NCBI GenBank assembly: GCA_003221005.1
Contig: QHTZ01000017.1
Span: forward strand, 1-42,401
Direction of reading: 5' to 3'
DNA from: Gemmatimonadota bacterium
GTDB lineage: Bacteria; Gemmatimonadota; Gemmatimonadetes; Gemmatimonadales; GWC2-71-9
Length of the DNA: 42,401 nucleotides
Below the pieces are notes generated by a model. It made no database searches, had not been told where the DNA came from, and was given only the letters and a program-made list of their open reading frames with translations. Both the position numbers and the translations under genes were made by a program. Shown piece after piece: positions 2,022 to 35,848 of this stretch (its first letter is position 1; the number at the start of each line of letters is the position of its first letter).

Positions 2022-3060
2022 AGAGCTCCGTGGCGGGCTCGTGGAGACCCGCCACGTCGTGCACGCTGCCGTCGTAGACGCGACGGGCCGGCTGCTGGGA
2101 CACGCCGGCGATCCAGAGCTGGTGACGTTCTGGCGCTCGGGGGCGAAGCCGTTCCAGGCGCTGCCCCTCGTGCAGGACGGCGTGGTCGAGCGCTTCGGCA
2201 TCACCGCGCCCGAGCTCGCGCTCTGCTGCGCCTCCCACTCGAGCGAGCCGCAACAGGTGCGCCTGGTGCGCGACCTGCTCGACAAGATCGGCTGTAGCGA
2301 GCGCGATCTGCTATGCGGGTCGCACCTGCCGCTCTCGGAGCGAGTCGCACAGGACTACGCGACCCGCGGCGTGCGGCTCACCGCCGCCTATTCGAACTGC
2401 TCGGGGAAGCACGCCGGCATGCTGGCGCTGGCGTGCCACCATGGCTGGCCGGTCGCGTTCTACACCCGTCGCGATCACCCCGTGCAGCAGCGCTGCCTGA
2501 CCGAGGTCGCCCGCTGGAGCGAGGTGCCCGCCGAGCGGGTCGGCACTGCGGTGGATGGGTGCGGCGTGGTGTGTTTCGCGATTCCGCTGCGCAACATGGC
2601 GCTGGCGTACGCGCACTTGGCAAATGCGGAATTCGGAATGCGGAATGCGGAATCGCAGGGGGAGTTTCGCGGCGCGAGCGACCTCGCATCGCCATTCCGG
2701 ATTTCGCATTCCGCATTGCGCATTGTGGAAGCCATGCTCCGCCATCCCGAGTTGATCGCCGGCGACGGTCGCCCGTGCACCGACATGATGCGCGCGCACC
2801 CGGGGCGGGTCGTCGCCAAGGTGGGGGCCGCAGGTGTGTACTGCGGCTTGTTGCCGCAGGAGGGATGGGGGATCGCCCTCAAGGTGGCCGACGGCCACGG
2901 ACCTGCGGCGGTGATCGCGATGGCCGGGATCCTCTCCGAGCTGGGCTTGCGACCGCAGCCGGAGCGCCTGGTATCGCAGCTGATCCTGAACACGCGCGGG
3001 GAGGCGGTCGGTGAGATGCGGATAAACGGGGGGCTGGAGCGCGGAAATGATGCGGAATAG
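2002..3060 (+). CDS. L-asparaginase II (Rhizobium AnsA-type) family, with in-frame repeat insertion
   Basis: Motifs RSGAKPFQA, CASHS, NCSGKHAG, DGCG, KVGAAG, KVADG. Confidence 0.85.
   Translation: MTSVIVEELRGGLVETRHVVHAAVVDATGRLLGHAGDPELVTFWRSGAKPFQALPLVQDGVVERFGITAPELALCCASHSSEPQQVRLVRDLLDKIGCSERDLLCGSHLPLSERVAQDYATRGVRLTAAYSNCSGKHAGMLALACHHGWPVAFYTRRDHPVQQRCLTEVARWSEVPAERVGTAVDGCGVVCFAIPLRNMALAYAHLANAEFGMRNAESQGEFRGASDLASPFRISHSALRIVEAMLRHPELIAGDGRPCTDMMRAHPGRVVAKVGAAGVYCGLLPQEGWGIALKVADGHGPAAVIAMAGILSELGLRPQPERLVSQLILNTRGEAVGEMRINGGLERGNDAE
2623..2724. repeat. Inverted heptamer-array hairpin (GGAATGC / GCATTCC), in frame in the asparaginase gene
   Basis: aatgcgg aattcgg aatgcgg aatgcgg aat ... 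cattccg gatttcg cattccg cattgcg catt. Confidence 0.95.
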
Positions 3061-3081
3061 GGAAAGGGGAATAGTAGAATG
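3054..3081. repeat. Solo heptamer array (GGAATAG type) at gene junction
   Basis: ggaatag ggaaagg ggaatag tagaatg; spans the asparaginase stop and the next start. Confidence 0.55.
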
Positions 3082-3780
3082 ACGCCGGACCGCGTAAACC
3101 AACCCCGGGGTCGTGCGCCGGGGTCACCCGGTGGCCCGCCCGGGCTCGACGCGCAGACGCGGGGCCTCGTGCGAGTGGCGATCGCCGTCGCGACGGGCGA
3201 CACTGCCGCCCTCAAGGAGCGGCTGCTCGGCGCGCGCGCGGCCCAGACGCCCGAACGCTGGGTGGACGAGCTGCTGCTGCAGAGCCTGCTCAACGTGGGG
3301 TACGCGCTCGGACTCCAGGCGTTCGCGGTGTGGCGCGACGTGAGCCCCGCCCCGGCGGGGAGCGAGACCCTCTCGCACGAGGCCTGGCGTGACTGGGCGG
3401 AGCGGGGCCCGCGCGTGTGCGGCGCGGTGTACGGCCGCACCTATCACAAGCTGCTTGTGAACCTGCGCGCGCTGCACCCGGCGCTCGAGACACTCGTGGT
3501 TGTGGATGCCTACGGCAAGCTGATCGGACGGGACGGGCTGGATCTCAAGCGCCGCGAGCTCTGCACGCTCGCTGAGATCGCGGTGCTCGACACGCCGCGC
3601 CAGCTGCACGCCCACCTGCGTGGCGCCCTCAACACCGGCTCCGCCCCGGAAGAAGTGGACGAGGCCCTCGCGCTGGTCGAGCAGGACGTGGGAGCGGAGC
3701 GGGCGTTGCGGGCGTGGGAGCTGTGGGCGGATGTGCGGGGGAGGAACCTTGGAACGCGGAAGTCGGAACGCGGAACATAA
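3079..3780 (+). CDS. Carboxymuconolactone decarboxylase / AhpD-like protein
   Basis: GLDLKRRELCTLA...QLHAHLRGALNTG CMD-family pattern. Confidence 0.85.
   Translation: MTPDRVNQPRGRAPGSPGGPPGLDAQTRGLVRVAIAVATGDTAALKERLLGARAAQTPERWVDELLLQSLLNVGYALGLQAFAVWRDVSPAPAGSETLSHEAWRDWAERGPRVCGAVYGRTYHKLLVNLRALHPALETLVVVDAYGKLIGRDGLDLKRRELCTLAEIAVLDTPRQLHAHLRGALNTGSAPEEVDEALALVEQDVGAERALRAWELWADVRGRNLGTRKSERGT
3101..3131. repeat. Degenerate REP palindrome in the 5' end of the CMD gene
   Basis: aaccccggggtcgtgcgccggggtcacccgg resembles the REP at 6765-6804. Confidence 0.6.
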
Positions 3781-4175
3781 ATGGTGGGTTCGTTGACGGC
3801 GAGCGACCTGAAGCAGCGCACGAAGGAGTTCGCTCTGAATACGGTCCGTCTCGTCGAGCGTTTGCCTCGAGGACGTGCTGCCGAGGTCATCGGCCGGCAA
3901 CTGCTTCGGTCCGGAACGTCCGTCGCGGCCAACTATCGATCGGCACGCCGAGCCCGTTCGCGGAGAGAGTTTATCGCGAAGATGGGGATTGTCGAGGAGG
4001 AGGCGGACGAGAGTTCGCTCTGGCTTGACCTCCTGGTCGAGGCTGGGCTCGTGCCTTCCGCTCAGGTCGCGGCACTGCGCGATGAGGCCGATCAGCTTGT
4101 TGCCATCACGGTCGCGTCTATCAGGACCGCGCGCGGTGGTGGTCGCGACGTTCCGCGTTCCGCCTTCCGCGTTCC
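3751..4175. mobile_element. Candidate element: four-helix-bundle gene bounded by 28-bp inverted heptamer arrays
   Basis: 3751-3778 ggaacgc ggaagtc ggaacgc ggaacat versus 4148-4175 acgttcc gcgttcc gccttcc gcgttcc; 26/28 complementary. Mobility is inferred. Confidence 0.7.
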
Positions 4176-4182
4176 GCGCTAG
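3781..4182 (+). CDS. Four helix bundle protein (TIGR02436 / 23S rRNA IVS protein / bAvd-like superfamily)
   Basis: [10 protein letters not shown]...[41 protein letters not shown] family pattern. Confidence 0.92.
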
Positions 4183-34631: not shown

Positions 34632-34843
34632 GCCCCCCCCCTCCTCCCGCGTCGCCGACGTTCGCTGAACAGCTCGAGCGCTTGGAGGAGATCGTCCGGC
34701 GGCTCGAGTCTCAGGAGCTCGATCTCGACGAATCCCTCAAGCTGTTCGAGGAGGGCATCGAGCGGCTCCGCGCGGTGCGCGAGCGACTCACCGCGGCCGA
34801 AGCGAAGGTCAAGCAGATCCTCGGTGAAGACTTCGACCGTTAG
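34628..34843 (+). CDS. xseB: Exodeoxyribonuclease VII small subunit
   Basis: LEEIVRRLE..ELDLDESLKLFEEG. Confidence 0.95.
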   Translation: MSPPPPPASPTFAEQLERLEEIVRRLESQELDLDESLKLFEEGIERLRAVRERLTAAEAKVKQILGEDFDR

Positions 34844-35738
34844 CCGCGGGCTCGCGGGATATCTGGCCGACGCCCGGGCGCGGGTTGACGCCGTGCTCGC
34901 CCACTGGGGGGAGCACTCGGGCGGCCTGTGGCCGGAGACGGTGGCGGCGGCGATGCGCTACAGCCTGCTGGGTGCGGGGAAGCGGCTCCGGCCAACGCTG
35001 GTGCTGGCCGCGTACGAGGCCGTGGGCGGCACGGCGCCGGCCATCGCGGAACTCGCGGCCGCGATTGAGGTGGTGCACGCGTACTCCCTGGTGCACGACG
35101 ACCTGCCCTGCATGGACGACGACGATCTGCGCCGCGGTCGGGCGACGACGCACCGGGCGTTCGACGTCGCCACGGCGACTCGGGCCGGCTTCCACATGGT
35201 TGCCCTGGCGGCCGCAGTGCTGGCACGCGGGATGGAGGCCCTCGCGCTCGATGCCGACCGCCGGGGCGCGGTGGCGTTAGAGCTGTTCCGCGCCGCGGGG
35301 GCGGGTGGGATGATCGGCGGCCAGGCGCTCGATCTCGCAGCGGAGGGGCAGGCCCTGCCTGTTGAAGGGTTGGAGGAGGTGCACCGGCGCAAGACGGGCG
35401 CGCTCATCGCCGCGTCGTGCGCGATCGGGGGGCTCGCGGCGGGGGCTCCCCCAGCGGCGGCGGAAGCGCTGCGCGGCTACGGCGCGCGGGTGGGGCTTGC
35501 CTTCCAGATCTACGACGACGTCCTCGACGCCACGGCGACCTCCGCAGAGCTCGGCAAGACGGCGGGAAAGGACGCCGCCCGCGCCAAATCCACGTTCGTG
35601 ACGGTGCTCGGCGTCGGCGCTGCGCGCGCGGAAGCCGAGCGGCTCGCGGCGCTGGCCGTAGACCACCTGCGGCAGGCGGGGTTAGTTTCTCCCGTACTCG
35701 TGGAACTTGCCCACTACATCGTGACGCGGCCGAACTAA
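34824..35738 (+). CDS. ispA: Polyprenyl (farnesyl/geranylgeranyl) diphosphate synthase
   Basis: GKRLRP, SLVHDDLPCMDDDDLRRG, GQALD, KTGAL, FQIYDD. Confidence 0.93.
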   Translation: MKTSTVSRGLAGYLADARARVDAVLAHWGEHSGGLWPETVAAAMRYSLLGAGKRLRPTLVLAAYEAVGGTAPAIAELAAAIEVVHAYSLVHDDLPCMDDDDLRRGRATTHRAFDVATATRAGFHMVALAAAVLARGMEALALDADRRGAVALELFRAAGAGGMIGGQALDLAAEGQALPVEGLEEVHRRKTGALIAASCAIGGLAAGAPPAAAEALRGYGARVGLAFQIYDDVLDATATSAELGKTAGKDAARAKSTFVTVLGVGAARAEAERLAALAVDHLRQAGLVSPVLVELAHYIVTRPN

Positions 35739-35744
35739 CTAAAT

Positions 35745-35848
35745 GAATGCGGAATGCGGAATTCGGAATGCGGAATCGAAATGGAGTGTCGTTCGCGGCA
35801 CGACGCTCCACCTGACATTCCGCATTCCGCATTCCACGTTCCGCATTC
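35745..35848. repeat. Intergenic inverted heptamer-array hairpin (ispA-dxs)
   Basis: gaatgcg gaatgcg gaattcg gaatgcg gaat / inner stem tggagtgtcgt..acgacgctcca / cattccg cattccg cattcca cgttccg cattc. Confidence 0.95.

Follow-up and report, generated by a model that had tools for sequence, protein, structure and literature searches.

Repeat features of the window

The window is the whole stretch analysed, 42,401 nt of the metagenome-assembled genome of a soil bacterium in the Gemmatimonadales (G000, 93.9% complete; relatives are numbered G001 and so on). All its repeat copies lie in or between protein genes, and no rRNA match was found in it. The features are as follows, with the strand where one was assigned.

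2623-2724: GGAATGC hairpin, 31-nt arms (2623-2653 and 2693-2724), 39-nt loop; in frame within the asparaginase II open reading frame 2002-3060 (amino acids 208-241)
3751-4178, forward strand: long module with a GGAACGC arm (3751-3776), a PF05635/TIGR02436 four-helix gene (3781-4182) and a CGTTCCG arm (4149-4178)
7819-7853: solo C-rich decamer arm, 3.5 copies of CCGCCCCTTA, a unit of the GGGCGGTAAG family, in the 3' part of the radical-SAM gene 6834-7970
13112-13221: hetero-unit pair in the MutS2 linker, G-rich heptamers at 13112-13138 and C-rich octamers at 13186-13221, 47 nt apart
14747-14816: GGGAAGC/GGGATGC hairpin, arms 14749-14777 and 14789-14814, 11-nt loop; within the DnaG linker that follows the DnaB-binding domain, in frame
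22175-22310: GGAATGC arm pair (22175-22206 and 22279-22310) around 72 nt of native RsmA coding sequence
23445-23548: GGAATGC hairpin, arms 23445-23475 and 23517-23548, in the rex-arcA spacer
28626-28688: octamer hairpin in the PheT linker, 4.1 copies of CGGTCGGA, loop of 5 nt, right arm degenerate
35745-35849: GGAATGC hairpin, arms 35745-35776 and 35816-35849, in the spacer that separates a polyprenyl synthetase gene from dxs

An earlier note on this DNA had described five hairpins, the four GGAATGC elements and the copy at 14747. All five are real, both by reading and by TRF, which gives the units AATGCGG/CATTCCG in 4.4-4.9 copies for the four GGAATGC elements, and in single-strand folding each folds better than 200 shuffles (z -4.7 to -8.6; 0/200 as good for each). 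The G-rich arm comes first in 5/5, and three elements put near 102-104 bp measure 102, 104 and 105 bp. The short motifs were also read correctly: the left arms at 2623, 23445 and 35745 contain GGAATTC, ACCTGA stands ahead of the right arm both at 22273 and at 35810, and the right arm at 35745 includes a single CGTTCCG unit. The list itself was incomplete, since it missed the octamer hairpin at 28626-28688 and the copies or arms at 3751-4178, 13112-13221 and 7819-7853. The description of the hairpins as protein-free has to be dropped, because the 2623, 14747 and 22175 copies lie in open, coding-scored frames of asparaginase II, DnaG and RsmA. No Rfam family matched the hairpins.

The five first-noted hairpins contain no PF05635 open reading frame, whereas the long module, wedged between a carboxymuconolactone-decarboxylase-like gene and obgE, has one. 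Its product scores 55.7 bits against the Pfam model (cut-off 33.8) and 79.8 against TIGR02436 (cut-off 24), and matches PDB 2rld with an E value of 6.5e-17. We know of no catalytic role for PF05635, a small helical protein.

Genome-wide architecture

Like arrays within 600 bp were counted as pairs. A genome-wide search returned 88 inverted pairs against 7 direct ones in G000, far more than chance would give; an inverted partner was found for 191/422 arrays and a direct partner for 19/422. For G-rich arrays the partner lies downstream 81 times and upstream 7 times; for C-rich arrays it lies upstream 87 times and downstream 5 times. Whichever strand is read, about 93% of elements have the G-rich arm on the 5' side. 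The genome holds about eighty hairpins, with arms of about 30 nt made of about four tandem units of 7-10 nt (mean copies per arm 4.16, sd 0.54, for 7-mers, 3.78 for 8-mers and 3.99 for 10-mers). Dozens of unit types occur side by side. Arm length and phase are fixed, with 4.4-4.7 units in 9/10 GGAATGC pairs, and the GGAATTC variant unit recurs in 6/10 left arms of this family genome-wide; 4/10 of its pairs are clustered in the 42-kb window beside the related long module. The arms are 0-150 nt apart or enclose a PF05635 gene of about 400 nt. Solo arms are common, as in the GGGGACG family, where 25 arrays are unpaired and 17 paired.

The fixed arm length and phase and the shared GGAATTC variant bear out the proposal that the family is dispersed, that its architecture is shared and non-random and that its arms have a common origin. 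The alternative named with that proposal was ordinary minisatellites, with random orientation, spacing and copy number. Orientation and copy number turned out to be constrained (88:7, 81:7, 87:5; 4.16, sd 0.54), and only the spacing is as variable as minisatellites would predict. Ordinary minisatellites were rejected on the tight orientation and copy number and on the absence of the arrays in sister genomes. A congener showed no such pairs in 244 kb sampled. Two perfect hairpin copies lie on a viral contig, and the spacers of a seven-tRNA cluster are filled by hairpins.

Loops and placement inside genes

Local alignments of 59 loops (1711 pairs) gave 12 scores of at least 10, compared with 10 for shuffled loops, and a maximum of 12 compared with 13. 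The words shared between loops do exist, GTCGTTCGC at 23445 and 35745 and TTCGCGGCRCGA at 2623 and 35745, but they are no evidence of homologous loops, as loop similarity equals that of the shuffled control. What the copies have in common is the arm pair, not the interior. In RsmA and MnmE the loop consists of the gene's own conserved coding sequence; these elements are therefore not MITEs copied whole, and the suggested MITE-like copying of entire elements is not upheld. The length change is +12 and +30 nt in RsmA, and in MnmE there is no net gain relative to the T. maritima protein. Variant units occur in both arms.

Between 19 (conservative) and 34 (crude gene calls) of 79 elements genome-wide lie in genes and are translated in frame. 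Their arms appear as Gly/Arg/Glu-rich and Pro/Ser/His-rich peptides in loops and interdomain linkers. Repeats that bracket the native coding sequence of housekeeping genes and keep the frame are a striking case; the genes with frame-keeping brackets include RsmA, MnmE, DnaG, DnaX, PheT, FtsK and LigD.

Orthologous sites in relatives

The unit at an orthologous site differs between genomes and matches the PF05635 arms of its own genome. The asparaginase site carries different units in 8/25 relatives' loci (clear pairs, at least 5 unit types), with the frame kept in 24/25. The RsmA site has GGAATGC, GGAACGC, GGATTGC, CAGGTGT or GGGGATT, depending on the genome. At the rex-arcA site, G005, G006 and G003 have no element, that of G002 and G001 is decayed, and G017 and G010 carry other units. 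Vestiges are seen in G004, where a single CAGGTGC and a single AACGCG stand at places at which its congener G003 carries arrays. The ortholog of the window's long module in G016 also adjoins asparaginase, and its arms are of the GGAGTGC type. Inspection by eye revealed no target duplication, either between the rex-arcA spacer and its empty orthologs, which are not close strains, or in the 12-nt flanks of the 88 pairs.

Association with PF05635 genes

The resemblance of the arms to those of the four-helix gene, which the earlier note had pointed out from a single unit, is real and general. Inverted arms scoring at least 14 flank 5/6 PF05635 genes in G000, the sixth having two units per side; such arms occur at 26/30 PF05635 loci of relatives, compared with 3/78 control windows, and at 17/21 loci across the phylum. 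PF05635 arms and dispersed arrays share units in G000, G016 and G003, and again in G067, which was examined as a prospective test. In a quick tree, PF05635 protein clades share unit motifs; linkage alone could cause this sharing between gene arms and protein clade.

Array density follows the presence of the gene in the window's family (f1), where 5/5 sampled genomes with PF05635 are array-rich (per 100 kb: G000 15.1, G013 23.5, G016 7.5, G003 9.7, G067 16.2) and 5/5 without it are array-poor (G004 1.6, G014 2.4, G011 1.2, G012 0.9, G061 0.5), in a sample of 10 related genomes that consisted partly of contigs picked for length and in counts that ignore kinship. No array pairs were found in 1.12 Mb sampled from five PF05635-free genomes. 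A counter-case is G025 of another family (f2): it has 8 PF05635 genes, but its array density is only 1.2 per 100 kb and 160 kb contained not one pair. The PF05635 genes of G025 are flanked by long non-tandem inverted repeats. Several large families in the 94%-complete G000 assembly (GACGGAAG, GCGAGAT/GCGGGAT, CGGGAAA and AGACGTC) had no arm-matching PF05635 gene there, and for GGAATGC the nearest PF05635-arm unit in G000 is only a one-transition relative, GGAACGC.

Comparison with known repeat systems

The intervening sequences (IVSs) of 23S rRNA in Leptospira and Coxiella are built like module 3751-4178, with a small four-helix-bundle open reading frame in the loop of a terminal-inverted-repeat stem of about 28 bp. 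The likeness extends to the stem, an inverted repeat of about 28 bp with tandem heptamers in both, but not to the location: no copy here lies in rRNA (helix 25 or 45 of 23S), and the sites are between or inside protein genes and in tRNA spacers. Most copies here have also lost or never had the open reading frame, dozens of unit types coexist, and RNase III, which excises IVSs, was not detected in this class. According to the available text of PMC4990558, the Coxiella IVS holds an S23p open reading frame and tandem heptamers in its stem region, in strain-variable number.

Available accounts describe REPIN-RAYT systems as dispersed, hairpin-forming inverted doublets whose repeat also flanks a low-copy gene, in genome-specific and largely vertically inherited populations. 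The elements here are likewise dispersed, genome-specific hairpins that share their repeat with the flanks of a low-copy gene. Unlike REPINs, they are associated with PF05635 rather than a Y1 transposase, the window's Y1 gene having its own REP-like flanks; their arms are tandem arrays and not single REPs, their interiors are unrelated, and a quarter or more of the copies are inside genes rather than extragenic. Homologous interiors, which MITEs have, are absent (59 loops equal to the shuffled control).

Rickettsia palindromic elements are also found in frame in protein genes and translated, but they have a conserved consensus of about 100-150 bp inserted as a unit, whereas here the arms alone are shared and can bracket native coding sequence. 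Eukaryotic Foldback transposons share the inverted terminal repeats of short tandem units; their arms measure hundreds to thousands of bp, compared with about 30 nt in these bacterial elements. Cyanobacterial STRRs, too, are heptamers in tandem at scattered sites of a bacterial genome, but they are not known to form inverted pairs of arrays with a constant length of four units, or to be tied to PF05635. The available text of PMC10053308 lists PF05635 together with the Avd-type four-helix proteins of diversity-generating retroelements (DGRs). As in DGRs, a short target tract would be overwritten with templated sequence; unlike DGRs, the system here lacks template/variable repeat pairs and adenine-specific variation, and a PF00078 search found no reverse transcriptase in the 93.9%-complete G000.

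A proposed PF05635-linked foldback system acting on DNA

We favour the reading, with a probability of roughly 0.55, that the five hairpins belong, as members without an open reading frame, to a foldback-repeat system that is tied to PF05635 genes and acts on DNA. Such a system would work at the DNA level and not as selected RNA structure, and its arms would be installed or rewritten pairwise around existing sequence; both pairwise installation and in-place rewriting are read from old comparisons, because no gain event was caught between close strains. The G-first polarity suggests that G-rich repeats would be added in the 3' direction on both strands. By analogy with RAYTs and their REPINs, a PF05635 oligomer may be the unit-specific factor that installs or maintains the arms, and the class-wide lack of canonical RNase III probably lets 30-bp stems persist in mRNAs. 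A bolder version, which we regard as possible but doubtful, is that PF05635 (S23p/Avd-like) proteins are the subunit that gives sequence specificity to a so far undescribed DNA "stem-writing" system, in which each paralog would recognise its own 7-10-nt unit and direct the writing or renewal of about four units 3'-ward on both strands, flanking an existing segment even in essential genes.

To our knowledge, what the open reading frame of rRNA intervening sequences does has been an open question since the early 1990s. Stem-writing, if true, would explain its purpose, as well as why the hairpins keep to rRNA where bacteria have RNase III and have spread into mRNAs in a class from which the enzyme was lost. 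An older idea cited in the available text of PMC4990558 is that the open reading frame serves the element's mobility. Since PF05635 has a countable genomic footprint, namely unit-sharing arrays that vanish with the gene, this idea can be tested by comparative genomics, binding and deletion. The link between PF05635 and hairpins may show how a long-puzzling IVS-protein family has spread.

Alternative explanations

The hairpins might instead be individually selected RNA elements, such as processing sites, mRNA stabilisers, attenuators or terminators. The predicted folds are very stable, hairpins occupy operon spacers as well as those of the tRNA cluster, and the available text of PMC4990558 describes a Coxiella IVS with an S23p open reading frame whose 28-bp heptamer stem is cut by RNase III. 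Against this, sense-strand mismatches in the arms show no excess of G·U over A·C (28:29 across 34 elements inside genes; 40:33 across 38 in spacers), and selection at the RNA level has thus left no sign. Three models detected no canonical RNase III in G000; the enzyme was found in 0/31 relatives and 0/42 genomes of the same class, as opposed to 18/19 in the phylum's other classes, which points to an absence throughout the class that bears on RNA processing in Gemmatimonadetes. With 19 to 34 of 79 copies within coding sequence, empty sites in close relatives and no matching Rfam family, the RNA reading is improbable and ranks below the two that follow. The absent RNA-level signature and the missing RNase III would suit a scheme with no dedicated system, in which slippage makes the arrays, intrastrand template switching inverts copies and keeps the arms alike, and a repair or RNase deficiency of the lineage lets them accumulate. 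The many solo arms, the variant units found in both arms and the bracketing of native sequence, which replaces rather than adds length, fit such a scheme as well. It does not account for identical unit, length and phase at many unlinked sites, for units that match the PF05635 arms of their own genome or for the G-first rule, and the RNase III-less sisters G004, G061, G011, G012 and G014 are without arrays. We consider it unlikely, and the least unlikely of these alternatives.

Behind slippage, and also unlikely, stand classical non-autonomous transposons (MITE/REPIN), in which whole hairpins are cut or copied by a transposase elsewhere, for instance a Y1/RAYT-like one, and the in-gene copies are tolerated insertions, as with Rickettsia palindromic elements. 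The terminal inverted arms of fixed length and phase with their recurrent GGAATTC, the clustering of GGAATGC pairs in the window, the copies on the viral contig and the presence/absence polymorphism of sites speak for this, as do two Y1_Tnp genes in G000, one of them inside the window. The loops, however, are no more alike than shuffled ones and are native in RsmA and MnmE, target duplications were not seen, and the flanks of the window's Y1 gene hold a GC palindrome of another, REP-like kind. No Y1_Tnp was detected in G005, G015, G020, G026 and G028, all of which bear hairpins, and G012, which has none, does carry the gene; a REP-like reading with a Y1 transposase as the mobiliser is not supported, as the distribution of these genes does not follow that of the hairpins. 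An assembly or binning artefact is hardly credible: short-read contigs from public soil runs do break at the arms, but the same architecture, at orthologous sites and with the frame kept, is present in many independent assemblies, and the architecture is also seen in near-complete few-contig genomes such as G067. On the practical side, short-read assemblies break at the arms, and predicted proteins acquire spurious low-complexity segments from them.

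Arm pairs in the window and across the genome

The paired arms are the shared entity and have a fixed polarity, their unit sequences follow the PF05635 genes, and the sequence that they enclose can be native. Each hairpin consists of a G-rich arm, a loop and a C-rich arm, and each arm is about 30 nt of some four tandem 7–10-nt units. The five hairpins that the earlier note reported in the window lie where it placed them, with 4.1–4.9 copies per arm according to the tandem-repeat caller TRF, and single-strand folding against dinucleotide shuffles gave z of -4.7 to -8.6, a stability that none of the 200 shuffles per hairpin matched. 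The words it quoted were all recovered (GGAATTC units, ACCTGA, GTCGTTCGC, TTCGCGGCRCGA and one CGTTCCG unit). Its five entries were correct but incomplete, as four further arms or elements are present, and three of the five hairpins, which it had called protein-free, lie within genes, with reading frames open for 180 nt on each side and coding-scored on both flanks.

Arms and hairpins within genes or around the PF05635 gene of the window
2623: hairpin in asparaginase II
3751–4178: long form, GGAACGC/CGTTCCG arms around a PF05635/TIGR02436 four-helix gene
7819–7853: solo decamer arm in a radical-SAM gene
13112–13221: G-rich heptamer and C-rich octamer arrays of different families in the MutS2 linker
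14747: hairpin in DnaG, past its DnaB-binding domain
22175: hairpin in RsmA
28626–28688: octamer hairpin in the PheT linker

The two MutS2-linker arrays stand in G-first order with 47 nt between them and are complementary only in part. The PF05635 open reading frame (3781–4182) was skipped by the codon-usage gene caller, which suggests atypical codon usage, and the arms at 3751–4178 supply the last codons of this frame and of its upstream gene. An Rfam scan of the window matched no family.

The window is contig C66 of an assembly (G000) of 2.79 Mb in 141 contigs with 69% G+C, whose nearest named relatives are Gemmatimonadota/Gemmatimonadales MAGs. With TRF and a pairing script, this genome yields 812 short-period arrays of dozens of unit types, among which 88 pairs are inverted (57 heptamer, 22 octamer, 2 nonamer and 7 decamer) and only 7 pairs within 600 bp are direct. 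With a more sensitive partner search within 500 bp, 191 of 422 arrays had an inverted partner and 19 of 422 a direct one. The G-rich array lies upstream in 81 cases versus 7, or 87 versus 5 when counted from the C-rich side. Because A...A' reverse-complemented is again A...A', the C-first order is a separate arrangement that is nearly missing, and the polarity is no artefact of symmetry. Mean copies per arm were 4.16 for 7-mers, 3.78 for 8-mers and 3.99 for 10-mers. The observation is real and extends beyond the earlier description, in which the idea of a family holds and that of a protein-free MITE does not.

Host proteins with an element in an interdomain linker include DnaX, FtsK, NadE, LigD, YidC and an aldehyde dehydrogenase fusion. 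Of 79 short elements, crude gene calling puts 34 in genes, 23 over a gene end and 22 between genes; a conservative test places 19 of the 79 in frame within genes. Crude gene calling also sets the upstream gene's stop codon across or directly against the left arm's first base in at least six elements (junctions such as t|GA and ta|A; C141:36653, C52:1863, C118:65557, C8:32813, C38:12353 and C120:32271). Solo arms are frequent, and one 6.8-kb contig carries four solo G-rich arrays of two families on one strand within 2.8 kb (G000:C2:2893-5648; L310). Among seven tRNA genes on one strand (G000:C38:41900-43200; L309), octamer hairpins of the TAGACGGG and GTCGGACC types fill three spacers, and a solo arm occupies a fourth.

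The GGAATGC family

Ten pairs in the genome belong to the GGAATGC family. Left arms begin at (G)AATG in 9 of the 10, right arms end in ...ATT(C) or GTT in all, one arm or both have 4.3–4.9 units in 9 of the 10, and the GGAATTC variant occurs in 6 of the 10 left arms. The fixed ends, the unit number and the common variant indicate that each arm is a copy of a defined ~31-nt sequence rather than a free-running microsatellite. The window, 1.5% of the assembly, contains four of the ten pairs, close to the one PF05635 gene whose arms are GGAAYGC; as the hairpins were the reason for choosing the window, this clustering is post hoc.

In four soil metagenome runs, each from a different study, bins covering the arms reach a summed contig depth of ~16,500 versus ~10–50 alongside, so GGAATGC hairpins are abundant in those soil communities. 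Contigs of these runs break at the arms, none spans them, and the arms are joined via many different short interiors. A 12.4-kb IMG/VR viral contig (L311) carries perfect GGAATGC hairpins at 199–300 and 2454–2545, between tail-fibre-like genes, with 4.6 units, 100% TRF match and unrelated AT-rich loops.

Native interiors and different units at one site

The earlier note read the hairpins as a MITE/REP-like family of common origin, partly from sequence shared between loops. The shared 9–12-mer words exist, but they lie within shuffled expectation and give no loop homology. Across 59 elements, loops match one another no better than shuffled loops (12 versus 10 scores of at least 10; best score 12 versus 13), and no target duplications were seen at element sites. 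When 21 of 30 retrieved RsmA orthologs are aligned as proteins (nine rows, partial or more distant, were omitted), the 72-nt "loop" proves to be a conserved NVxVVxGDALxLDWHxL segment, and the two arms are independent changes, each at a variable loop. Relative to congener G004, which has no arms, the left arm region has 12 nt more and the right 30 nt more, so the arms mostly replace sequence rather than add to it. Likewise, the loop in MnmE holds the G4 motif (TKAD), and the entire stretch does not exceed its T. maritima counterpart in length.

The same site can carry different units in different genomes. In RsmA, arm pairs occur in seven genomes, the left arm alone in G006 and G014, and no arms in G004.

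Units of the RsmA arm pair in the window's genome (G000) and related genomes
GGAATGC: G000, G009
GGAAYGC/GGAGCGC: G002
GGAACGC: G005
GGATTGC: G015
CAGGTGT: G003
GGGGATT: G016

At one loop of asparaginase II, 25 loci comprise 13 with a plain stretch of 30–57 nt, 8 with clear pairs of at least five unit types (3 of the 8 in family f3) and 4 with shrunken or decayed arms, and the loop length is a multiple of three at 24 of the 25. The 79-nt hairpin in asparaginase II of G001 (L264) is out of frame, and the match has TGA stops; the gene may be broken by the element, or this may be a sequencing error. Three congeners have an empty rex-arcA spacer and two a decayed one, and in two other genera different units occupy it. 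In G016, G003 and G020, the unit at these sites equals the unit around a PF05635 gene of the same genome.

Link to PF05635 genes

PF05635/TIGR02436 is the four-helix "23S rRNA IVS protein" family, named for rRNA intervening sequences (IVS). Five of the six PF05635 genes in the window's genome have flanking inverted tandem-unit arms scoring at least 14, and the sixth has two units per side. Such arms were found at 26 of 30 PF05635 loci in relatives versus 3 of 78 control windows, and at 17 of 21 loci across the phylum (another one, of an unpublished genome, was excluded). The G-rich arm is not generally the ribosome-binding site of the PF05635 frame, as the arm lies anywhere from ~29 to 138 nt away from the Pfam match.

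Dispersed arrays share their units with these arms: GGAACGC, GGGGACG, GGCGGTAAG, GGCGGTC and CCAATGT in the window's genome, GGGGATT in G016, GGGGACG and AGGTGTC in G003, and TAGGGAC, CTAGACGT, CCGATAG and TCTAACCG in an 80-kb sample of G067 that was fixed before looking. PF05635 protein clades also have common unit motifs in a quick tree (read without rows L112, L114, L116, L121, L128, L130, L131 and L134), although linkage alone could produce such sharing.

Within the window's family (f1), array density and short pairs accompany PF05635; the genomes compared are related to each other, and some contigs were picked for known length. For G061 and G067, the outcome had been predicted beforehand.

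Arrays of 7-, 8- and 10-nt units per 100 kb in f1 genomes
With PF05635, short pairs in each: G000 15.1; G013 23.5; G016 7.5; G003 9.7; G067 16.2
Without PF05635, no array pairs in the length given: G004 1.6 (244 kb); G014 2.4 (210 kb); G011 1.2 (166 kb); G012 0.9 (108 kb); G061 0.5 (396 kb)

Where G003 has arrays, its congener G004 has one CAGGTGC and one AACGCG, which reads as collapse following loss. A genome of family f2 (G025) has eight PF05635 genes, yet no arrays in 160 kb.

Placement among known systems and possible mechanism

IVS-type PF05635 modules are the closest known system. According to PMC4990558, the Coxiella 23S rRNA IVS has a PF05635-family frame and a 28-bp inverted-repeat stem with tandem heptamers that vary in number among strains, the same build as the modules here; among the literature matches, heptamers in an IVS stem are described only there. 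The literature searched gave no description of dispersed, in-frame, segment-bracketing hairpins. Excision in the IVS style is probably not how the elements behave here, since no canonical RNase III was detected in the window's genome by PF14622, PF00636 or TIGR02191. In the survey of this genome and 91 related ones, canonical RNase III was found in none of 31 relatives and none of 42 genomes from this class (41 without the unpublished G077) versus 18 of 19 genomes from other families of the phylum, which suggests a class-wide loss; the literature search returned nothing on such a loss in this class. We infer that this loss is what lets perfect 30-bp stems persist within mRNAs.

Selection on the RNA stem would favour G·U over A·C among arm mismatches on the sense strand, and this test was null twice (28:29 in 34 in-gene elements and 40:33 in 38 spacer elements), which argues against such selection and for a DNA-level process or a recent origin. 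The polarity would fit 3'-directed addition of G-rich repeats on both strands at two points, one on either side of a segment, and solo arms would arise if addition on only one strand survives. An oligomer of the PF05635 protein is the putative unit-specific factor, with catalysis and binding both hypothetical. That copy number counts protein subunits is suggestive only: 7-mers and 10-mers both have about four units, yet 7-mer and 8-mer arms are equal in nucleotides. Retro-homing as in diversity-generating retroelements was rejected because no reverse transcriptase was found in the window's genome. REPIN-RAYT systems, in which REP hairpins accompany a Y1 transposase, are close by analogy; mobilisation of this kind was rejected, as the distribution of Y1 genes does not follow the hairpins and the Y1 gene has its own REP-like flanks. 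In the window (6276–6806), an IS200/RAYT-like Y1_Tnp gene (6344–6775) lies between GC-rich REP-like palindromes, CCCCGGGCCGTCGGC twice upstream and CCCCGGGGCGACGCCCCGGGG downstream, a repeat system separate from the heptamer hairpins.
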